Of a stretch of DNA of 64,000 bases, positions 1 to 53,794 are shown one piece after another (position 1 is the first letter of the stretch; every line of letters begins with the position of its first letter). Under the pieces are notes generated by a model. That model worked only from the letters and a program-made list of their open reading frames with translations. It ran no database searches and was not told the DNA's origin. Position numbers and translations under genes: made by a program. Location: the NCBI GenBank assembly GCA_002070055.1, contig MWCM01000001.1, positions 16,308 to 80,307 on the forward strand. The letters run 5' to 3'. Origin of the DNA: a bacterium ADurb.Bin212. GTDB taxonomy: Bacteria; Patescibacteriota; UBA1384; XYA2-FULL-43-10.

Positions 1-327
1 AGTGAAAAGCGTCACATACATGCCATGCTCTGCGCACTGCTGCAGAAACCACATAGTTAGTTCCCGGTTGGCCGGCACGAACGGCTCGCCGGCGCCGGGG
101 ACGCCGATGGAATCGACGCCCATCTCCTTGGCCTCGTCGAGGATCTTCACGTAGTCATCGCGAGTCATCAGATCTTCGACGCGCAGCTTCTCCCCGCCAC
201 AGGCGTAGCAGTAGCTACATGCCAGGTTGCACCAGCCGGGGAATTCAATCCAAAGCGATTGCAAATTGCCGGTGTTCTTACGTTCGAGTCCGTGCTGAAC
301 CGCCTTTGCGCTAACATTCTTTTTCAT
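1..327 (-). CDS. radical SAM protein, N-terminal fragment (3' part outside window)
   Basis: Reverse-strand ORF starts at ATG 327 with an AGGAGA RBS. Translation MKKNVSAKAV...WCNLACSYCYACGG has the CxxxCxxC radical SAM cluster motif, followed by a GAGEP glycine-rich motif. GC-rich relative to the rest of the window. Confidence 0.6.
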   Translation of the reverse strand, partial: MKKNVSAKAVQHGLERKNTGNLQSLWIEFPGWCNLACSYCYACGGEKLRVEDLMTRDDYVKILDEAKEMGVDSIGVPGAGEPFVPANRELTMWFLQQCAEHGMYVTLFT

Positions 328-552
328 TTTGATATCTCCTGGTGCCCCATTTTGGGGCTTATTTTGTTAATGTCCCTCCCGATGATTGGTTTTAAAACCT
401 CTCATCGTGACAGCGCATTGTAACAGAATATTCACAAAATGTCCAGACCATATCACAACAACCAGACCTATTATAATAGCTAATATGAAGCTAATATTGA
501 CAAATTAAGCTAACATCATTACAATATGTGAAGAAAAATTAACAACAAAACT

Positions 553-1737
553 ATGGATAAAATTGTTGAAAAATTGGCGGGAATTGGTATTGAGGAAAAG
601 CCGGCAAGAGTATACTTGGCTACTCTTGAGATCGGTGGCGGCTTAGCCTCTGAGATTGCTCAAAAAGCCGGCATTGAGCGAACGCACACATATCATCTGC
701 TTGAACAGCTTATACGTGAGGGTCTAGTTTATCGTTCAGAAAAGGGCAATAAACTGATATTTATGGCACAAAGCCCTAAAAAGATCGGGCAGCTAATAGA
801 AAGCCGTCTAGAACAGGCCAAGAACCTTATTCCCGAGCTTTTAATGTTGGAAGGGTCAAATACCACCAAACCAAAGATTAAACTCTATGAGGGCATAGAG
901 GGGATAAAACAGCTGTTTGAGGAGACCTTAGACTTGCCGCGTGGCACAGAAACCTTGGCCTACTCTTCGGCAGAGTCAATTCATGATTATTTAAAAGAGT
1001 ATGTGCCACAGTATCTAAAGCGTCGTGTGCGCAAGGGCATCAGTCAGCGTGCAATCGCTGAGAACAGCGAAGAGGCAAGAGAACATCAAAAAATGGACGC
1101 AGAGGAGTCGCGCCAGACTAGGTTAGTTGATAGAAACAAATTTCCTTTCAAAAACGAGATCAATATATTTGGCAATAAGATTATGATCGCGTCATACCGA
1201 GATTTAATGGGCGTGATAATAGAGTCAAAAGAGATTGCTGACACCCAGCGCGCGATCTTTGAATTGGCATGGCTCGGCACTCGTGATGCAGATGGTAAAG
1301 TGCTCAATAAAGAGATAGCAGAAAATGAGCTAAGGAAGGTGGAAAAGATTCGCAAAACTACTCAAAAAGTGATATTCGAACATGATGGTAAAATTCTCAT
1401 GATGAAGGACACCAAAAATCACTGGGAGCTGCCTGGGGGCACGATTGATTTCGCAGAGGACGCTGATGTTGCATTGATGCGTGAATTAAAAGAGGAGATG
1501 GGGCTTGATCCACAGCAATATAATATTGAGAATATAATAGGCAACTTCAAGATTGTTAGAGAATTTCCGGATAAACATTATCATTTTTTAGTTTTGGTTT
1601 ATCGTGGCAAACTTAAAGTGGCTGATTTCCAAATTTCAAGTGAACACACCGAGTTTGGTTGGTTTACAATTCCCGAGATATTAGAGTTAGATATGGTGTC
1701 GGGTTATAAAGAGTTTTTTGCCAATATAACGTTGTGA
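553..1737 (+). CDS. TrmB-family HTH transcriptional regulator fused to a C-terminal Nudix hydrolase domain
   Basis: N-terminus matches TrmB-like wHTH (KPARVYLATLEIGGGLASEIAQKAGIERTHTYHLLEQLIREGLV). C-terminus carries a Nudix box (PGGTIDFAEDADVALMRELKEEMG). The middle segment (FPFKNEINIFGNKI...IIESKEIADTQRAIFELAW) is shared with the paralogs at 9412, 12331 and 25377. Confidence 0.65.
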   Translation: MDKIVEKLAGIGIEEKPARVYLATLEIGGGLASEIAQKAGIERTHTYHLLEQLIREGLVYRSEKGNKLIFMAQSPKKIGQLIESRLEQAKNLIPELLMLEGSNTTKPKIKLYEGIEGIKQLFEETLDLPRGTETLAYSSAESIHDYLKEYVPQYLKRRVRKGISQRAIAENSEEAREHQKMDAEESRQTRLVDRNKFPFKNEINIFGNKIMIASYRDLMGVIIESKEIADTQRAIFELAWLGTRDADGKVLNKEIAENELRKVEKIRKTTQKVIFEHDGKILMMKDTKNHWELPGGTIDFAEDADVALMRELKEEMGLDPQQYNIENIIGNFKIVREFPDKHYHFLVLVYRGKLKVADFQISSEHTEFGWFTIPEILELDMVSGYKEFFANITL

Positions 1738-8385: not shown

Positions 8386-8420
8386 AAAAAGCCCCCTCCT
8401 GAATGTATCAGGCAGGGGGC
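8386..8420 (-). terminator. rho-independent terminator of the GC-rich two-gene module
   Basis: The minus strand reads CCCCCTGCCTGATACATTCAGGAGGGGG then TTTTTT, immediately 3' of the stop at 8431. Confidence 0.7.
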
Positions 8421-8430
8421 GGGTTTTGGT

Positions 8431-8775
8431 TTACCGACCGGTGGCAAACCATGCGCGCACCAGCTCGGCTGCCAGGGCGCAGCCTTCCGGCTCGCAATGG
8501 CAGGTGACAGCCATGCGCTGGTGGGTACGGTCGATGATGACGATCCGATCGGGGTAGATCGCAATCTCATCGAAAGCCACCTCGTTGCCCTCCGGGTACT
8601 CGCGCCACCACGACTTGACTTCGGTCTCATTCAGCCAACCTCCCCAGTCGTCAGGGACACCGATGGCGTCCTGGTATCTCTGACCACCTACCCAGACCTC
8701 GTCGTCCGCGCAAGGGCTGTCACAGAGGTCACTTACGAACCCGCAGAACCGAAGTGCAGCGATCAGATTGAGCAT
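8431..8775 (-). CDS. hypothetical protein (GC-rich island, distal gene of pair)
   Basis: 114 aa, Trp/acidic-rich (DDWGGWLNETEVKSWWREYPEG); GCAGGAGAC RBS; about 62 % GC. Confidence 0.45.
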   Translation of the reverse strand: MLNLIAALRFCGFVSDLCDSPCADDEVWVGGQRYQDAIGVPDDWGGWLNETEVKSWWREYPEGNEVAFDEIAIYPDRIVIIDRTHQRMAVTCHCEPEGCALAAELVRAWFATGR

Positions 8776-8896
8776 ATTAGTCTCCTGCGTTTATGGCTCG
8801 CCAGCCTTAGGTTGTGAATGTTCGAGGCTAAACCTCGGAGGAGGGTGCGATCAGTTACGATCGTACCCGGTCCATCTGAGGTGAGTAGCTTTTTGG

Positions 8897-9160
8897 CTAC
8901 TCGGGTGGGAGGGTGCCGTGTTCGGCGAAGTAAGTGATAAGCTCAATAACCCGTTGGTGATTAAGAGCCGCCTCCTCTTCGCTGTCGGCGATATGTTCGA
9001 GGTTGTTGGTGTAGTCAAGCTCTTCGTTGATCCCTGGTCCGAACGCCATTGTCTCGTAATGGTTGCGATCGGTCGGGAGAACAGTGGAAACGAGGTATTC
9101 GTTTCCGTTGATGAACAGCTTGTTGCGGAAGACGCGAACTGTCTCAGAGCGAAATTTCAT
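8897..9160 (-). CDS. hypothetical protein (GC-rich island, proximal gene of pair)
   Basis: 87 aa with an AGGTGAG RBS; same strand as the 114-aa ORF 120 bp downstream, so probably co-transcribed. Confidence 0.45.
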   Translation of the reverse strand: MKFRSETVRVFRNKLFINGNEYLVSTVLPTDRNHYETMAFGPGINEELDYTNNLEHIADSEEEAALNHQRVIELITYFAEHGTLPPE

Positions 9161-17760: not shown

Positions 17761-17860
17761 ACAAAAAAATCCCTCCTGCAAAAATTATATCATAGTCGCG
17801 AGCAAATAGAGTGTGAATAAGTTTGTTTATACAAAAAAAGACAACGCGGTTGTCATTTTT

Positions 17861-17886
17861 CATGGTTCCGAGACTAGGAGTCGAAC
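17861..17886 (-). repeat. direct duplicate of the 3' end (T-arm and acceptor) of tRNA-Gln
   Basis: catggttccgagactaggagtcgaac is identical at 17861-17886 and 18015-18040. The 17861 copy has no matching 5' acceptor strand, so it is not an intact tRNA. Confidence 0.7.
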
Positions 17887-17988: not shown

Positions 17989-18014
17989 AAGATCATCTTA
18001 CGATGATCCCTTTT
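17989..18014. terminator. bidirectional hairpin terminator
   Basis: aaaaaaaGATCATCttacGATGATCcctttt: a 7-bp stem flanked by an A-run and a T-run. Confidence 0.5.
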
Positions 18015-18016
18015 CA

Positions 18017-18090
18017 TGGTTCCGAGACTAGGAGTCGAACCTAGATTGGCGGTGCCAGAAACCGCTGTCCTGCCATTAGACGATCTCGGA
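18017..18090 (-). tRNA. tRNA-Gln (anticodon CUG)
   Basis: The reverse complement folds as a cloverleaf: acceptor TCCGAGA/TCTCGGA, D-arm GTCT..GGAC, anticodon stem GCGGT/ACCGC with loop TTCTGGC (U33, CUG, G37), T-arm CTAGG-TTCGACT-CCTAG, and an encoded CCA. Confidence 0.75.
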
Positions 18091-18726: not shown

Positions 18727-19767
18727 ATGGAACATGCAATGCTAAGAGAAATTAAAGAACAACCGGAGGTGCTTAGGCGCTTGGTTGGGTCTTGTAAACA
18801 TAGTTTTTTTGCTGAGGCAGTAACGCTTATTAGGGAGTCAATTAGTAATGGCGGACAAGTTGTTTTTTTGGGTAATGGCACGTCTTATCACTCTTGTATA
18901 TATGGGCAGTATCTTTTTTCGATCTCTAATCATGTAATTGTTAATATTTTTGATACGGCGGAGTTTGAGCCCTTTATAGAAAATTTAAATCAGAATGCAA
19001 CGGTAGTAATTGTTTCTCAGAGTGGTGAAACGGGGGATGCGTTAGAAATAATTCAAAAACTTGTCCCGAGTAAACCCGAGGGATCAAAAATTATCTCCAT
19101 AACTAATAATCCTAAATCGACTTTGGCCAGGGAATCGGATGTGGCAATAGACTTAATGTTGGGCGAAACCAATGCGATACCAAGCACAAAGGGCTATACC
19201 GCCGAGATGGCAACTTTCGCCTTGCTTTCTGATGGTATTAAAGAGAGCCAAAATTTTGCGGGTAAGGTTGAGACGATCGCAAAGGAGATGAAGAGAGTAA
19301 TCTTCGCAGAACACGAACAAATTAAAGCTCTTTCTGATAAATTAAAAAACCAACAGCTGATGTATGTTCTCGGCCATAGTATCGGTTTGTCAAATGCCTA
19401 CGAAGCGGCTTTGAAGATTAAAGAGTGTGCACACATACAAGCCGAGGGGTATTCTGGCCCAGAGTTCAGGCATGGTCCAAGTTCAATGATTGGCTACAGT
19501 ACTCCGGTTATTGTTTTCGCCCCGGATATCGAAAGTGAAGAGGATCTAAAAAGCGTGGTGGGCGAGGTTAAGCACTCTGGTGGCTATGTAATTGGGGTTG
19601 GATCAGAACATAGTCTCCATTATGATTTGCATTTAAAGACAATTGATGATTATTTGTATTCCCCCTTAACTGCCATTGTGCCTATTCAGTTATTGGCTTT
19701 TGAGTTGGCGATGACCAAGGGTCTTGACCCAGATAAGCCTATTGGAGTTAGGAAAGTGGTAGATTAG
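18727..19767 (+). CDS. SIS-domain phosphosugar isomerase (GlmS C-terminal-like or AgaS-like, two SIS domains)
   Basis: MLREIKEQPEVLRRL resembles the start of the GlmS isomerase half; two SIS motifs (VVFLGNGTSYHS; VIVSQSGETGDALE). No glutaminase domain. AAAGGAGG RBS. Confidence 0.65.
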   Translation: MEHAMLREIKEQPEVLRRLVGSCKHSFFAEAVTLIRESISNGGQVVFLGNGTSYHSCIYGQYLFSISNHVIVNIFDTAEFEPFIENLNQNATVVIVSQSGETGDALEIIQKLVPSKPEGSKIISITNNPKSTLARESDVAIDLMLGETNAIPSTKGYTAEMATFALLSDGIKESQNFAGKVETIAKEMKRVIFAEHEQIKALSDKLKNQQLMYVLGHSIGLSNAYEAALKIKECAHIQAEGYSGPEFRHGPSSMIGYSTPVIVFAPDIESEEDLKSVVGEVKHSGGYVIGVGSEHSLHYDLHLKTIDDYLYSPLTAIVPIQLLAFELAMTKGLDPDKPIGVRKVVD

Positions 19768-19895
19768 AGATCGGCGGATTCTCTCTTGGGCGAATTTTTA
19801 TAATAAGCGGCTTAACAGGTGTCTTTGTTTTGTCGCGGTTTTTATGTTGGGTTGACAATTTTAGTTATTGGGTTATAATAGAATTTCTCAAGGTT

Positions 19896-20012
19896 GGATT
19901 GCGGAAATCTAGGGCGGTCTTGACTTGCTCTGATCGGGCTTAGCCCATCCGCTCTAACCGACCTTGTTCACCTGGTCCCGCCGCCGCCGTTTGCGGCGGG
20001 ACCAATATTTTA
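19896..20012 (+). ncRNA. candidate small RNA B (about 117 nt, unclassified)
   Basis: Near-consensus promoter: TTGACA 19862-19867, 16 nt, TATAAT 19884-19889. GC-rich rod-like hairpin (AAGGUUGG...CCGACCUU enclosing GCGGA...UCCGC). Ends in a 10-bp GGTCCCGCCG/CGGCGGGACC terminator stem at 19974-20002, then a T-run. Confidence 0.45.
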
Positions 20013-20030
20013 TGTGCATATAATACTTTG

Positions 20031-20050
20031 ACGCGTTTGGCGTCTTTTTT
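20031..20050 (+). terminator. second rho-independent terminator (GACGC-GTTTG-GCGTC plus T7)
   Basis: Perfect 5-bp stem with a T7 tract, 20 nt after the first terminator. Confidence 0.55.
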
Positions 20051-20185
20051 TGATTATTTGATAAAATAGATTTTAGACCACAGAAGTTACATTCAGAAAA
20101 TTCAGGAGTATTGAATGAATGGTAGCAGAAAGAGGGTAGTAAGTGCTACGATAGTCTAACACCTAACACCTAACACCTATTATTT

Positions 20186-21610
20186 ATGTGCTTAACAATA
20201 CCGGGAAAAATTAAATCGATTAAAGACGGCGTGGCGACAGTCGAAAATGGTTCCAGAACCGAGCAGATTGAGCTTGGAGTAGTTTTTGATGCCAAAGTAG
20301 GGGATTGGGTGCTTTATGCCACAAATCGCGCCGTGAGACTGATAGATGAGCAGGAGGCGCGTGAGATTATTGAGCTTCTTGAAGATAATTATCAACCGGT
20401 GGATATTGCTTCTCTACCGTTGAGGTATAAAAAGATTGTTTATAAAGTGAGAAACACTGAGAAAAATCAAAATATCAATTTAAAATCAAAAAATATTATT
20501 AATAGCAATTTAACAATCCAGCAATTTAACAATATTCACAAGAGCGATCTCGAATATCTACTACAGTTGAGAGGTAAAAATAATCTTGAAGCCTTTTACA
20601 GTGAGGCTAATGTCTTGCGTAAGAACATAATTAAAGACTTCGTCTGCATACACGGCATTGTAGAATTTTCTAACTATTGCAAGAATTGCTGTCTTTATTG
20701 CGGTATAGGGAGCAAAGCTAAAATACGACGTTATCGTATGACTTCCGACGAAATATTCATGGCAGTCGAACAGGCGGTCGAATTTGATGGTTATAAATTG
20801 GTGGTTTTGCAAAGTGGAGAGGACGATTATTATAGCGATGACGAGCTCGTGTCATTGATAGATAGGATCAAAAAAGATTTAAGAGTTTTTGTCTTCATTT
20901 CGGTGGGAGAGCGGTCTAAAAACTTTTATAAAAGAGCATTCGAAGCGGGGGCAAGCGGCTCACTTTTTCGTTTTGAAACCTCGAATCCGGAGTTATATAG
21001 CCGAATGCATCCGAATCATGATTTACAAAGCAGACTCGAATCTATACAAATGCAAATCGAGATTGGATATTATTTGGCAAGTGGTGGTTTAATCGGCTTA
21101 CCAGGTCAGACTATCTCTGATATGGCAGATGATCTTTTGTTGGTGAAGAAACTTCGGATTCCAATGTTGTCGAGTGGACCCTGGATTCCAAGTTTGACTA
21201 GCCCGCTTGGAATAATAACCAATAACCAAGGCACAAGAAACAAACAAATTCCAAACGGTGTCATTGCGAGGGACGAAGCAATCTTTAACAATTTAGCAAT
21301 AAAACAATTTAGCAATAATGAAAAATTGCGTCTGACTCTTAACTATATCGCGGCGGCGCGCTTTTTAATGCCGGAGATCAAAATTCCTGTGACTACAGCT
21401 TTGGAAACATTAGACCAAGAGAGCGGACGACACAAAGCCTTGTTGGCCGGTGCCAACGCCTTAATGTTTAATATTACTCCGGAAAAATACCGAGGCGATT
21501 ATAATTTATACGATCATAAATATATAGAACGGGAGAAAGTTTGGCAAAAATACGGGCTCTTTAAAGGAGAGGAGAGTTACGAGATGCTAGAAGATAGGTT
21601 AAAGATCTAA
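20186..21610 (+). CDS. HypC/HupF-like N-terminal domain fused to a BioB/HydE/PylB-type radical SAM domain
   Basis: N-terminus MCLTIPGKIKSIKDGVATV...VGDWVL matches the HypC MCLxIP signature. Downstream, NYCKNCCLYCGIG is a CxxxCxxC motif in the C(K/R)NNCxYCG style of BioB/HydE/PylB, and GGLIGLPGQT is a family-like glycine motif. Contains two in-frame repeat-derived inserts (20506-20533; 21224-21318). Confidence 0.55.
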   Translation: MCLTIPGKIKSIKDGVATVENGSRTEQIELGVVFDAKVGDWVLYATNRAVRLIDEQEAREIIELLEDNYQPVDIASLPLRYKKIVYKVRNTEKNQNINLKSKNIINSNLTIQQFNNIHKSDLEYLLQLRGKNNLEAFYSEANVLRKNIIKDFVCIHGIVEFSNYCKNCCLYCGIGSKAKIRRYRMTSDEIFMAVEQAVEFDGYKLVVLQSGEDDYYSDDELVSLIDRIKKDLRVFVFISVGERSKNFYKRAFEAGASGSLFRFETSNPELYSRMHPNHDLQSRLESIQMQIEIGYYLASGGLIGLPGQTISDMADDLLLVKKLRIPMLSSGPWIPSLTSPLGIITNNQGTRNKQIPNGVIARDEAIFNNLAIKQFSNNEKLRLTLNYIAAARFLMPEIKIPVTTALETLDQESGRHKALLAGANALMFNITPEKYRGDYNLYDHKYIEREKVWQKYGLFKGEESYEMLEDRLKI

Positions 21611-35269: not shown

Positions 35270-37879
35270 TTAATTCTTGGTTGCTCTCCAAACTTCTTCC
35301 ATGCTGGTGATGCCCTCAGAGGCTTTGATAATTCCATCTTGAATCATGGTAACCATACCTTGGCTGATGGCCAGATTGTTAAGCTCGTCGGATGAAACTC
35401 GTTTCAAAATTTGCTGTTGCATCTCCGGTGTTACATCCAACACCTCATATATGCCTAATCTGCCTTTGTAGCCGGAGTTATCACAACTTTTACATCCTTT
35501 GCCCTTGTAGAATTTCAACTCCTGGCTCTGAATCTGATTTTTCTCTGCCGATGGCATTTTATCAATCTCTTTGTTGATCTCGGCAATCTCTTCATCCGGC
35601 AATTGAATCTCCTCTTTGCAATCCTGGCACAGGGTTCTAACTAAACGTTGGCCCACAACCACGTTGATAGAGGAGGTTATAAGGAAGGGTTCGACTCCCA
35701 TGTCGATCATTCTAGGGGCGGCCCCAGCCGCGTCGTTGGTGTGCAGGGTGGACAAAACCACATGCCCCGTTAATGCCGCGTGAACGGCCATCTCAGCGGT
35801 TTCTCTGTCTCTTATTTCTCCTAGCATTATAATGTCTGGATCTTGTCTTAAAATGGATCTTAGACCGGCTGCAAAGGTGTAGCCGATTTCAGAATTAACT
35901 TGGCTTTGGTTAATACCTTTCATCTGATATTCAATCGGATCTTCCAGCGTGATAATATTTACACCTTCGGTATAAACCTTTTGGATCATGGCGTATAGAG
36001 AGGTGCTTTTGCCACTGCCCGTTGGACCTGTTACCAAAACCATGCCGTGGCTTTTAGTCAAGTTTGCCTCAAGCGCCTTCAGGCCGCTACCTCTTATTCC
36101 AAGCTGCTCTATGGTTAAAATGCCACTATCTTTGTCCAAAATTCTCATTACAATCTTTTCGCCAAATGCAACCGGCATGCTTGAAACGCGGAAATCAACA
36201 CGGCGACTATCGACGTGCATGTTGAATCTGCCATCTTGAGGTACTCTTTGCTCATCAATTTTCATGTTGCACAAAATCTTGATTCGGGATATAACAGCTG
36301 CTTGAATCTCCTTAGGCAAAGAAACCTTTTTTCTTAAAACACCGTCTAGACGGAAACGGACTTCAACTTCTTTCTCTGTTGGTTCAATATGAACATCTGA
36401 AGCCTTGTCTCTTATGGCTCTTTTCAAAAGCGATGAAACAATTTTGGCGGCCGGAGCGTCATCGCTGACCGTCTCGACAATCTGTTTGGACTCATTATTT
36501 TCTTCGCTCTTTTCATCCTCCTCTTCGGCAGTGGCTATTGCGCTTGACACCTCGCTCTCCAGATCTTGGTATTGGCTTAGAACAGAGTTAATATCTGATT
36601 CTGTTGCTAAAAAGAGCTTAATCTTCTCGCCTAATAATCTTTTAATCATCTCTCTTGTTTCGACATCTTCAGGATCCACCATGGCGATGCTAATAACGCC
36701 ATCATTCTCTTCAAAGGCTACAGATTTATACGATCTGGCGATATTTTCCGGAATTTTAGAGAGTAATTCTTTCGGCACAATAAAATTATTAAGATCTTTA
36801 TATTCGATTTTGGTTTTGTCGAAATTAAAAGAGCCTTCAGCACCTGAGAATATTGAGGCATGTTGTTCGTTGGGAGTAGGGGGAAGTGAATCCTGGTTTA
36901 CCTCCGTATTTGCGCCTAATGTATCTTGGTTGGGTTGTCCCAGCTCCTCTTTGATATTGTTAATCTTCTCTTCAGCGTTCTGACTAGCTTCTACAGGAAC
37001 GATATTAACCGGCGTTGCTTCTGCTTTAGCGGAGTTTTTGTCAAAGATACCGAATTCTGCCATATTTACTGGAGTTTTGACTTCTTCATTAGAAGCAGGC
37101 TGGTTACTGTTTTCTGGAGCAGCGTCATCCTTAATTTGATCGCCAATTTCCTGATTTTTTTTGCCAAATCCCAGTTTATTCTTAAGAAGGCTCAGGGCAC
37201 TTTGACCTTGACTTTGTTGGTCAGTTGGTTGAGTTTCCTTGTTTTCTTGCTCTGGTTGATGGTTGTGGGCTTTGATACTGCCTTTAACAGTCGAAAACTC
37301 CCTGCTACCATCGCTTAAAATCTCCTCAAAAATGTTAACAGGCTTTTGCCTGCTTTCTGATGTTTGCGAGTGATATTTTTCTATGTCATCTTCGTGGTGT
37401 TTGCTTGGCTTGTTTTCTGATTCTTGACTGTTCGATGGGTGATCAATATTGATGACCTCAATTTCGTCTGCAGGTTTGTTAAATCCCTCTGATATATCGT
37501 TTTCAGTTTTTTTCTTGCTGTTATTAACGTTTATTTTAATCTCCTCTGAAAAGGATTCTTCCGCAGCTTTCTCCTCAAGGTCGTTCTGGTCGCTAATCTC
37601 TTCTCTTCCAGAAACCGCCCTTTTCAAATTGCTGGCGGGCATCCACTTTATTACTCTAGTAGGTAACATAATGAGTTTTTTGCCGTTCTTGGGGTGATTT
37701 ATTGTTTTGGACGGATATTCGATATCATAAAAAGAACCAAAATTTGAATAAACAACTTTTTGGCCGTTGCAAAGTGCCTCTTTAACCACAGCCCCAAAAG
37801 CGATAATGAGGTTCTCTGACTGTCTTTTTGACAGAGAAGTTTTTTTGGCTATGGCCTTAGCTAGATCGCTACGATTCAT
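35270..37879 (-). CDS. pilB: fusion: HU/IHF-like DNA-binding domain, acidic low-complexity linker, then PilB/GspE extension ATPase
   Basis: N-terminal roughly 90 aa, MNRSDLAKAIAKKTSLSKRQSENLIIAFGAVVKEALCNGQKVVYSNFGSFY...NGKKLIMLPTRVIKW, aligns with the bacterial HU fold. About 350 aa of Glu/Ser/Asn-rich linker follow, then a GspE_N domain, Walker A VLVTGPTGSGKST, and a CQDC...CKSC zinc motif. Start at ATG 37879 after a GGAGGGG RBS; the track start is an upstream TTG. Confidence 0.7.
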   Translation of the reverse strand: MNRSDLAKAIAKKTSLSKRQSENLIIAFGAVVKEALCNGQKVVYSNFGSFYDIEYPSKTINHPKNGKKLIMLPTRVIKWMPASNLKRAVSGREEISDQNDLEEKAAEESFSEEIKINVNNSKKKTENDISEGFNKPADEIEVINIDHPSNSQESENKPSKHHEDDIEKYHSQTSESRQKPVNIFEEILSDGSREFSTVKGSIKAHNHQPEQENKETQPTDQQSQGQSALSLLKNKLGFGKKNQEIGDQIKDDAAPENSNQPASNEEVKTPVNMAEFGIFDKNSAKAEATPVNIVPVEASQNAEEKINNIKEELGQPNQDTLGANTEVNQDSLPPTPNEQHASIFSGAEGSFNFDKTKIEYKDLNNFIVPKELLSKIPENIARSYKSVAFEENDGVISIAMVDPEDVETREMIKRLLGEKIKLFLATESDINSVLSQYQDLESEVSSAIATAEEEDEKSEENNESKQIVETVSDDAPAAKIVSSLLKRAIRDKASDVHIEPTEKEVEVRFRLDGVLRKKVSLPKEIQAAVISRIKILCNMKIDEQRVPQDGRFNMHVDSRRVDFRVSSMPVAFGEKIVMRILDKDSGILTIEQLGIRGSGLKALEANLTKSHGMVLVTGPTGSGKSTSLYAMIQKVYTEGVNIITLEDPIEYQMKGINQSQVNSEIGYTFAAGLRSILRQDPDIIMLGEIRDRETAEMAVHAALTGHVVLSTLHTNDAAGAAPRMIDMGVEPFLITSSINVVVGQRLVRTLCQDCKEEIQLPDEEIAEINKEIDKMPSAEKNQIQSQELKFYKGKGCKSCDNSGYKGRLGIYEVLDVTPEMQQQILKRVSSDELNNLAISQGMVTMIQDGIIKASEGITSMEEVWRATKN

Positions 37880-38276
37880 GCCCCTCCGTAATGAGTTAAC
37901 AAGATGTCTGGAAATGAAAAATCCCCTCCAAAAACAGTATAACAACCGCTCTTGGACAAAGCAATATTTATATGGAAAACAGACGATTTTGACTTACCGT
38001 TTAGTTGGACTCGCGCTTAAATTGTCGCTTGCTCTTAATAATATTAGTTAAATATTTTTCCTTGCTAAATTTGTCACTTAAAAAATTATTATGTTCACAT
38101 CTCTTGGGACAAACTGGGGATAAATTCGGGCTATTTCTTGATTAAAATATAGCTATTAGCTTTTGGAGCAACAAAATATACATCTCGACACGAGTTATGT
38201 GCGGCGATGGTAAGTAGAGGATATAATAAGATTGATTTGAAGCGCAACAATATTGAGATTTTTATTTTGATTTTCT

Positions 38277-52669: not shown

Positions 52670-53794
52670 ATGAATAAACTTGTTTTAATAGACGGTAATG
52701 CTATCATTCACAGGGCCTACCACAGCATGCCAAAAACACTAAGCACACGCAAAGGAGAGCAGACAAATGCCATCTATGGCTTTGCCATCACTCTAATAAA
52801 GGTGCTTGAAGATTTAAAGCCGCAATATTTAGCGGCGACTTTTGATTTGGCTGGGCCGACTTTTCGCCATGAGGTTTTTGAGGAGTATAAGGCCACCAGG
52901 GTAAAGGCCGATCAGGAGCTTTATGATCAAATTCCTCGCGTAAAGCAGTTGGTGGAGACAATGGGCATACCGATATATGAGAAAGATGGTTTCGAAGCGG
53001 ATGATGTGATTGGAACGATTGTGGAAATAATTCAAAAATCAAAAATCAAAAATCAAAAGTACAATTCAAAAGTAAAAAATAAAAAATTTATTTCAAGTGA
53101 AACGAAGGAGCCTAATACTTTAGCAATAGAACAATTTAACAATTTAACAATATATATAGTAAGTGGGGACAAAGACATTTTTCAACTCATAAACGGCAAT
53201 GTCAAAGTGTATAATCTTAAAAAAGGATTGAGTCAGACGCAAATTGTTGATACTGAGGTAATCCAAAATGAATATAATTTACAGCCATCAGATTTTATCG
53301 ATTTGAAGGCTTTGGCGGGTGACCCAAGTGATAATATCCCAGGGGTGCCTGGGATTGGACCAAAGACAGCTACAGAATTGATACAAAGATTTGATACTTT
53401 GGAAAAGATTTATGAGAATATCACTAAATTGCTCAATTGCCCAATTGCTGATTTAAACAATTTAACAATACAACAATTTAACAATGAAACGATCGAAGTG
53501 GTTGCCAAGGAGCTTGGCCTTAAGCCTAGGGTTGTGAAACTGTTGATTGACAATAAGGAGCAAGCCTTTCTTTCTCAGCATCTTGCTACAATTCACAAAG
53601 ATGTTCCAATTGATTTTGATCTGGATAAGTGCAAGTGGGGAATGTATGATAAAAGTAAATTGAGCCAGTTGTTTGAAGAATTGGGCTTTCAATCACTCCT
53701 TCGAAGATTTGCCAACAACGCAACGGAAGAACAAAAAAAACAAGAGCAAAGAAGCGAGGCGCAAAAAAAAGATGAGCAATTAAAACTACTATGA
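52670..53794 (+). CDS. polA: DNA polymerase I, 5'-3' exonuclease (FEN-like) part
   Basis: LVLIDGNAIIHRAYHS...GFEADDVIGT...SGDKDIFQL...PGVPGIGPKTA are the 53EXO motifs. Ends at TGA 53792-53794, 1 nt before the ATG of the polymerase ORF, in a different frame. Carries about 35 aa of repeat-derived insert (53040-53151). Confidence 0.8.
   Translation: MNKLVLIDGNAIIHRAYHSMPKTLSTRKGEQTNAIYGFAITLIKVLEDLKPQYLAATFDLAGPTFRHEVFEEYKATRVKADQELYDQIPRVKQLVETMGIPIYEKDGFEADDVIGTIVEIIQKSKIKNQKYNSKVKNKKFISSETKEPNTLAIEQFNNLTIYIVSGDKDIFQLINGNVKVYNLKKGLSQTQIVDTEVIQNEYNLQPSDFIDLKALAGDPSDNIPGVPGIGPKTATELIQRFDTLEKIYENITKLLNCPIADLNNLTIQQFNNETIEVVAKELGLKPRVVKLLIDNKEQAFLSQHLATIHKDVPIDFDLDKCKWGMYDKSKLSQLFEELGFQSLLRRFANNATEEQKKQEQRSEAQKKDEQLKLL

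Follow-up and report, generated by a model that had tools for sequence, protein, structure and literature searches.

In the Enterobacteria, glmS is controlled by the small RNAs (sRNAs) GlmY and GlmZ, which are some 150-200 nt long and consist of stem-loops and a terminator, while the Firmicutes possess sRNAs with C-rich loops, RsaE and RoxS. Other bacterial RNAs are recognised by their architecture: the SRP RNA (4.5S; RF00169/RF01854) by a domain IV hairpin with a GNAR tetraloop and conserved symmetric and asymmetric loops, 6S RNA (RF00013) by a rod some 180 nt long that arises when its 5' and 3' ends pair and that contains a large central bubble, and the hammerhead ribozyme by three helices around the core CUGANGA ... 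GAAA ... UH. The RNAs of CPR bacteria are often divergent, and a full-text literature search found no published regulatory RNAs in the CPR/Patescibacteria (including Saccharibacteria). Here we describe a probable case of a genuine, lineage-restricted orphan sRNA gene, belonging to no known family, in the Patescibacteria (CPR) metagenome-assembled genome of bacterium ADurb.Bin212. Our analysis is based on a stretch of 64,000 nucleotides from this genome, hereafter the window.

The locus and its predicted RNA

The candidate RNA unit lies in a gap of 418 nt between a gene for a GlmS-isomerase-like protein with a double SIS domain and a gene for a fusion of HypC with a HydE-like radical SAM domain, both on the plus strand (Table 1). 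The remainder of the window is ordinary chromosome, encoding GltX, glycosyltransferases, type IV pilus proteins, DnaB, the clamp loader, PolA and PNPase, and among the approximately 50 window ORFs scanned there are no genes for Hfq, CsrA or ProQ, and no reverse transcriptase or Cas genes. A search with the HypC-radical SAM protein returned 772 matches; nearly all of the best 120 possess both domains, and the named sources among these 120 are Patescibacteria or unclassified bacteria. The fusion was called unusual in a preliminary description of this DNA, yet judging from these best 120 of 772 matches it is widespread in Patescibacteria.

Several further features of the window deserve mention in their own right. 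AT-rich repeats of the AACAATTTAACAAT type occur inside coding regions at 20440-20540, 21270-21330 and also 53110-53500; those in the HypC-radical SAM gene constitute a low-complexity linker, and variation in its length may explain the range of 423-560 aa among homologues. An exact direct repeat of 30 nt is present at 17857-17886 and 18011-18040 (copies 154 nt apart), one copy covering the 3' end of a tRNA-Gln (18017-18090, minus strand), and has the look of a scar, or of an att remnant, left by a small insertion at this tRNA. Finally, in an unusual fusion, a PilB/T2SSE ATPase of 891 aa (35270-37945, minus strand) carries an HU-type (Bac_DNA_binding) domain at its N terminus.

The unit opens with a sigma-70 promoter that agrees with the consensus at every position of both boxes, as previously described, and is preceded by a T-rich stretch. 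Perfect TTGACA-N16-18-TATAAT sites number 2 on both strands of the 64-kb window, against 0.05 expected from shuffles, and the promoter of the RNA unit is thus far above chance expectation. The predicted start of the RNA is at about 19885, 3-4 nt 5' of the closing helix P1, and the whole unit extends from promoter to terminator over 19852-20051. The span of 19862-20050 given earlier does not take in the -35 box. The other perfect promoter in the window (TTGACA-N17-TATAAT, 9260-9232, minus strand) points into a GC-rich island at 8400-9160, with up to about 59% GC vs about 41% overall, which comprises a structured leader and two small minus-strand ORFs (8897-9160, 87 aa; 8431-8775, 114 aa) for which Pfam gave no match. 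This island may be foreign DNA, or it may be the first RNA candidate of the preliminary description.

The 5' part of the RNA is predicted to fold into a three-way junction of 78 nt, in which P1 is separated from a second helix, P2, by an asymmetric internal loop, and P2 opens into the junction with two hairpins, H1 and H2. This domain alone (81 nt as folded) has a minimum free energy (MFE) of -33.2 and a z-score of -4.2 relative to dinucleotide shuffles, with comparable values in two relatives (-4.4 in L002 and -3.7 in L009), and for the full 167 nt the MFE is -68.9 and z = -5.5, the native fold being equalled by 0 of 200 shuffles. The closing helix, the GCGGA/UCCGC pairing and the GGGC-UUA-GCCC hairpin had all been proposed before and are retained here, with the amendment that the closing helix has 9 bp and not 8; the transcript is, however, predicted to be branched, and the term "rod-like" does not describe it.

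Two hairpins follow, both of which had been recognised as tandem terminators, with a first stem of 10 bp and a gap of 20 nt. We find 12 pairs in the first, which is rich in GC, and place the second 25 nt beyond it. Moreover, only in the window strain is the first hairpin followed by a U tract (AUAUUUUAU) and hence terminator-like; its tail reads AUAUCUUAU in L017, AUAUCCUUUAU in L002 and AUAUCCUAUAU in L009, the U tract having been lost. For this reason it is probably better regarded as a structural or 3'-protective element, and at most as a partial terminator. The second hairpin is a canonical intrinsic terminator, with a proper U tract in every allele and a run of at least 6 Us in all alleles shown. 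Its position predicts a 3' end at about 20050 and an RNA of about 165 nt, and in the window strain a minor shorter form of about 120-125 nt, ending past the GC hairpin, may also exist. Between the hairpins lies a single-stranded AU-rich linker. Part of it (TTTTATGTGCATATAATAC, 20008-20027) is similar, in the same orientation, to the beginning of the HypC-radical SAM gene (ATTTATGTGCTTAACAATAC, 20180-20201), a likeness that could be due to chance in AT-rich DNA or could be the trace of an old duplication.

Table 1 Features of the RNA unit, its neighbourhood and the corresponding site in sister lineages (window coordinates, except in the last row, where positions refer to the loci named)
Feature	Position	Strand	Details
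Double-SIS-domain (GlmS-isomerase-like) gene	18727-19767	+	5' neighbour of the RNA unit
Consensus sigma-70 promoter	19852-19879	+	TTGACA 19852-57, 16-nt spacer, TATAAT 19874-79; 12/12 match
5' domain, three-way junction	19889-19966	+	78 nt (81 nt as folded)
Helix P1, closing	19889-19897 / 19958-19966	+	CAAGGUUGG / CCGACCUUG; 9 bp
Asymmetric internal loop	19898-900 / 19953-57	+	AUU / UCUAA; between P1 and P2
Helix P2	19901-05 / 19948-52	+	GCGGA / UCCGC; opens into three-way junction
Hairpin H1	19907-34	+	base AUC/GAU, GGGYGG motif, variable tip
Conserved joining strand	19930-36	+	CUGAUCG
Hairpin H2	19936-46	+	GGGC-UUA-GCCC
GC-rich hairpin (first)	19973-20004	+	11-12 bp, 12 pairs (10 GC), loop CGCCGUUU, tail AUAUUUUAUG
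AU-rich single-stranded linker	20005-20029	+	variable even between near-identical strains
Canonical intrinsic terminator (second hairpin)	20030-20051	+	GACGC-GUUUG-GCGUC (20030-20044) plus U7
Putative promoter elements of downstream gene	20028-20067	+	TTGACG 20028-33, 18 nt, GATTAT 20052-57 (9/12); extended -10 TGATAAAAT 20059-67
Mini-ORF	20115-20159	+	MNGSRKRVVSATIV; 14 codons + stop, AGGAG upstream
CTAACAC heptamer repeat	20156-20179	+	period 7, 3.4 copies, 100%
HypC + radical SAM (HydE-like) fusion gene	20186-21610	+	3' neighbour of the RNA unit
Sister-lineage RNA units after SIS gene	L005 3773-3962; L006 1521-1686, 1820-2002; L007 2732-2910; L008 1408-1578		L006 units in tandem

Conservation and the site behind the SIS gene

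Relatives of the RNA were sought in loci around homologues of both flanking genes, and by means of a structure-aware DNA pattern (GGATT-N5-AATC...CTGATCG...TCTAACC) that was run on collections of metagenomes, genomes and viral contigs. The pattern found one true match and three chance matches in the metagenomes, and a scan of the genome collection anchored on the SIS protein yielded one relative, L009; in the viral contigs a mistyped version of the pattern had 0 matches, and blastn searches against phages found nothing. A covariance model of the 5' domain, run on the window and 11 loci, detected neither a paralogue nor a distant relative, and there is no repeat copy of the RNA within the window. 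In all the collections searched, the RNA is represented by three distinct alleles in five contigs, namely one common to the window and the near-identical strain L017 (with identical RNA bodies), one in L002, and one in L009 and L011, which are two substitutions apart (in the GC-hairpin stem and the terminator loop).

The comparison of the intergenic region that had been suggested earlier supports a discrete transcription unit for a small RNA, as predicted: promoter, fold, GC hairpin and terminator are kept in L002, L009/L011 and L017, and there is no conserved ORF, the reading frames being of unequal length among alleles. In every contig except L011, which has lost the -35 box, the two promoter boxes are kept at the same spacing and P1 follows just past the start; the GC hairpin and final terminator are retained in all five contigs. 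One compensatory change (UA to CG) and three one-sided changes leave P1 paired, with both CG/UA and GC/GU exchanges, whilst P2 and the GC-hairpin stem are invariant save for one C-to-A substitution in the L011 stem; H2 is broken in L002. In so small a set of sequences, covariation is no stronger than in the controls (1 compensatory pair among three alleles, with 136 of 500 shuffles doing as well), and the fold is consequently supported mainly by the thermodynamics of each allele (z from -3.7 to -4.4) and by the pattern of conservation.

This pattern is centred on the interior of the domain. The blocks that do not vary, namely UGGAUUGCGGAAAUC, CUGAUCG, AUCCGCUCUAACC and the stem of the GC hairpin, correspond to the ends of P1, to the internal loop and P2, and to the strands of the junction. 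Variation is found in distal H1, in the loops of H2 and of the GC hairpin, in the short spacer that follows P1, and in the AU-rich linker. The window and L017 differ only beyond the GC hairpin, with 5 of the differences in the linker and 0 in the RNA body. The alleles are close, and the apparent invariance of some blocks may partly reflect too little divergence time. L002 (3818-3925) and L009 (1061-1166) differ at 19 positions within 105 nt of RNA, as against 2 and 0 differences in the adjoining 290 and 238 nt. Hypermutation of the RNA was considered, but the wider background is mosaic and the two genomes are not otherwise identical (the contigs diverge by 4-10% elsewhere). The differences may instead stem from recombination over a short tract, or the peripheral parts of the RNA may be evolving fast. 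In L011 a transposase-like ORF of 287 aa (230-1093, minus strand) abuts the -10 box of the RNA (1240-1260) and the -35 box has been replaced, so that the promoter is, on sequence grounds, probably disabled. Loss of the -35 box to this IS element suggests that loss of expression is tolerated and, together with the absence of the RNA from several relatives, that the RNA is dispensable.

In sister lineages the same site behind the SIS gene is occupied by other RNA units: one each in L005, L007 and L008, and two in tandem in L006. Each encodes, between a near-consensus promoter and a U-tract terminator, a structured GC-rich RNA of 165-190 nt, and none has sequence similarity to the window RNA or a match in Rfam. 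They include two classes with invariant C-rich loops resembling an anti-Shine-Dalgarno sequence (CCUCCC; CUCCCCCCC). In L005 and L007 the common sequence CCNCCCUCCCUUYGG is accompanied by a covarying GC hairpin and then GCCUGAUA, and the second unit of L006 (L006b) and that of L008 have the invariant apical loop CUCCCCCCC in common, with five compensatory pairs. The nearest analogue of these neighbouring-lineage RNAs is RsaE/RoxS. The L007 unit, although unrelated to that of the window, has the same terminator sequence, TTGACGCGTTnGGCGTCTTTTT. The occurrence of unrelated promoter-to-terminator units at one place indicates that the site is a hotspot of fast-turnover, stand-alone RNA genes, and the sequence comparison places the window RNA among them as one narrow-range class.

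Known RNA families and the downstream gene

The preliminary description had proposed a check against Rfam for SRP, 6S and other RNAs. With 4227 models, the whole window gave two tRNAs only at the gathering score, and cmscan at E<=10 on 19750-20200 (451 nt) gave matches at chance level, the best of which (isrK, E = 0.11) merely aligns both hairpins; five related loci likewise gave only chance-level matches at E<=10, and ARAGORN found no tRNA or tmRNA at the RNA locus. The lack of a match at E<=10 means that SRP, 6S, tmRNA, RNase P, riboswitches and ribozymes are not supported. Individual candidates were also rejected on structural grounds. For SRP RNA there is no match at either threshold, the domain IV motifs are absent, and the fold is a three-way junction with a perfectly paired GC hairpin. 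For 6S RNA there is likewise no Rfam match, and the 5' end of the window RNA pairs locally (P1, 19889-19966), its 3' part being a separate hairpin and terminator. None of the 4227 families identifies a riboswitch at E<=10. The strand CUGAUCG recalls the hammerhead core, yet it is without G8/A9, there is no GAAA strand (H2 is followed by A, GA or AA only), and no Rfam ribozyme matches. The template of a diversity-generating retroelement (DGR) or a retron was considered and rejected, there being no reverse transcriptase among the approximately 50 window ORFs scanned and no repeat copy of the RNA in the window. On the other hand, the unit has the attributes of a stand-alone sRNA gene: its own promoter, its own intrinsic terminator, no conserved ORF, and retention in relatives.

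The combination of RNA, double terminator and leader peptide had previously been taken to suggest a dedicated regulator or attenuator of the HypC-radical SAM gene. Our results argue against this view, there being no competing fold, promoter-like sites that would be the gene's own, and relatives in which the gene occurs without the RNA. In the full RNA, P1 and the GC hairpin are each predicted with a probability of at least 0.97 in all three alleles (about 1.0 for the hairpin), and when the 3' arm of this hairpin is withheld, its 5' arm stays unpaired and P1/P2 remain intact in the window and L002, an alternative fold appearing only in L009. Across the three alleles there is thus no conserved antiterminator or mutually exclusive fold. 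Just 3' of the terminator the window has putative promoter elements (20052-20067), with equivalents in L002/L009 (TGATATAAT) and L007 (TGTATGAT), which we infer belong to the downstream gene and not to the RNA.

The ribosome-binding-site-preceded mini-ORF does exist, with 14 codons and a stop instead of the 17 codons first counted, and the heptamer tandem is as reported. Both are absent in L002/L009; in L017 two amino acids of the mini-ORF are changed and one copy of the repeat is missing, a variation in copy number typical of slippage. The mini-ORF lies, moreover, downstream of both hairpins, and we do not regard it as a leader peptide: to judge from the alignment, mini-ORF and repeat would be strain-specific features of the 5'-UTR of the HypC-radical SAM gene, outside the RNA.

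The HypC-radical SAM gene itself is found without the RNA in L003, L004, L018, L014 and L016. In L018 it begins about 30 nt after the SIS gene, and in L014 and L016 there is neither a SIS gene nor any comparable element beside it. In L003 (3497-3841) and L004 (3591-3935) the gap between the SIS and radical SAM genes is filled by a gene of the 23S_rRNA_IVP family. A gene of this family (four-helix-bundle, Avd-like) also occurs in L008 (2689-2904), and no reverse transcriptase is found near the copies in L003, L004 and L008. In L008, two other genes separate the RNA unit from the radical SAM gene, and the gene that follows the unit is a Metallophos gene. Complementarity between unpaired segments of the window RNA and the start regions of the SIS and radical SAM genes does not exceed chance. 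Taken together, the RNA does not look like a cis switch for the downstream gene.

Competing explanations and comparison with known systems

The reading we prefer, to which we give a probability of roughly one half, is that the unit is a gene in its own right, strongly transcribed, whose product is a structured non-coding RNA that acts in trans and is recognised through its folded core. It proceeds from the promoter, fold, terminator, conservation and lack of competing structure described above, and the remaining steps are put forward conditionally. The sigma-70 promoter would start transcription some 3-4 nt before P1, the RNA would fold into the 78-nt junction domain, the very stable GC hairpin and the AU-rich linker, and the transcript, of about 165 nt, would end at the intrinsic terminator near 20050. 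Uncoupled in cis from the HypC-radical SAM gene, it would most likely act in trans, on a partner (a protein or possibly a small ligand) that would recognise the folded core rather than a linear seed. Such recognition is suggested by the invariance, among three alleles, of the junctions, internal loop and inner helices, with variation in the tips and single strands.

This same distribution of changes bears on the alternative of a base-pairing sRNA acting in trans, one that would repress or activate mRNAs encoded elsewhere in the genome through a seed in a loop or in the AU-rich linker, with the 5' domain as its scaffold. A structured body, an AU-rich single strand and a Rho-independent terminator are typical of such RNAs, and those of L005/L007 and L006/L008 do possess invariant, seed-like C-rich loops (CCUCCC, CUCCCCCCC). 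In the window RNA, however, the single-stranded parts vary, the linker even between near-identical strains; H1, H2 and the GC hairpin all have loops that change from allele to allele, and none is C-rich; and complementarity to the start regions of the neighbours is not above chance, all of which makes a seed-based mechanism rather unlikely. A leader acting in cis, whether a riboswitch or a protein-dependent attenuator, with the strong promoter serving the gene and the hairpins as regulated terminators, would account for the position of the unit directly 5' of the HypC-radical SAM gene and on the same strand in the window, L002, L009 and L017, for aptamer-like conservation centred on the junction, and for the mediocre U tract of the first hairpin. 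We nevertheless think it improbable, as no antiterminator is conserved and the second terminator, with its U7, is canonical, promoter-like elements for the gene lie beyond it, five relatives (L003, L004, L018, L014 and L016) have the gene without this leader and the L008 unit precedes a different one, no riboswitch family matches, and leader peptide and repeat are not conserved.

The unit might also be transient or non-functional cargo of the variable hotspot, with no specific role as an RNA: either a promoter and hairpins by which the SIS gene is insulated from the next gene, or a decaying remnant. This would fit its patchy distribution, its absence from close relatives, its replacement by unrelated RNAs or a 23S_rRNA_IVP-family gene, the destruction of the promoter by an IS in L011 and the broken H2 of L002. 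Against this, three alleles keep a perfect promoter sited precisely at the base of P1, and the window and L017 have the same RNA body although adjoining non-coding DNA has changed. The invariant blocks, moreover, survive although the RNA positions around them diverge by 18% between L002 and L009; decay or passive carriage seems to us improbable in equal measure to a leader. A housekeeping RNA (SRP/4.5S, 6S, RNase P, tmRNA or Y-RNA-like) too divergent for the Rfam models would explain a very strong promoter like those of stable RNA genes, and divergence of this kind is often seen in the CPR. Yet no family matches at E<=10, the SRP domain IV motifs and the 6S rod are absent, and an RNA missing from this locus in close relatives and confined to 5 contigs of all collections is unfit for an essential role, so that we consider this explanation extremely unlikely. 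More ambitiously, and returning to recognition through a folded core, the 78-nt domain with its AUU/UCUAA loop and CUGAUCG strand could represent a new aptamer-like or protein-binding class of Patescibacteria RNA, one of several interchangeable, highly expressed regulatory RNAs at the hotspot behind the GlmS-like SIS gene; this is a speculative extension that we would not expect to hold.

The present evidence describes a narrow-range orphan sRNA and not a new regulatory principle. Its consensus promoter and its fold, kept across three alleles, nevertheless make it a concrete candidate for metatranscriptomic validation, and the unrelated RNA genes at the same site hint at rapid turnover of sRNA genes in reduced genomes. 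The unit resembles the stand-alone sRNA genes of other bacteria in having a sigma-70 promoter, a length within 100-200 nt, several hairpins and an AU-rich stretch before an intrinsic terminator, as well as in its intergenic position and the fast turnover of its sequence between related species. It departs from them in lacking sequence or covariance-model similarity to any Rfam sRNA, a conserved single-stranded seed and a C-rich loop, and in its host, a CPR bacterium with no RNA chaperone gene among the approximately 50 window ORFs scanned.

In shape, the 5' domain is reminiscent of the aptamers of purine riboswitches (RF00167), which likewise have a P1, a tight three-way junction with two hairpins, conservation at the junction and a terminator-like hairpin downstream. 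Unlike these, the window RNA has the additional helix P2, its internal loop is asymmetric, and it has neither conserved complementarity between loops nor an Rfam match; nor is there an antiterminator over P1 and the hairpin, the second terminator is constitutive, and the gene behind it has promoter-like sites of its own and is RNA-free in relatives. With GlmY/GlmZ the RNA has in common its size, its stem-loops and terminator, and a neighbourhood, given that the RNA units always lie immediately after the GlmS-like double-SIS-domain gene. The likeness is one of neighbourhood only, with no similarity of sequence or structure and no complementarity to the start of the SIS gene, and the association may simply be inherited synteny. 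Were the existence of a new class at this site to prove true, however, it would perhaps constitute a functional analogue of control of the GlmY/GlmZ type in organisms with very few protein regulators.
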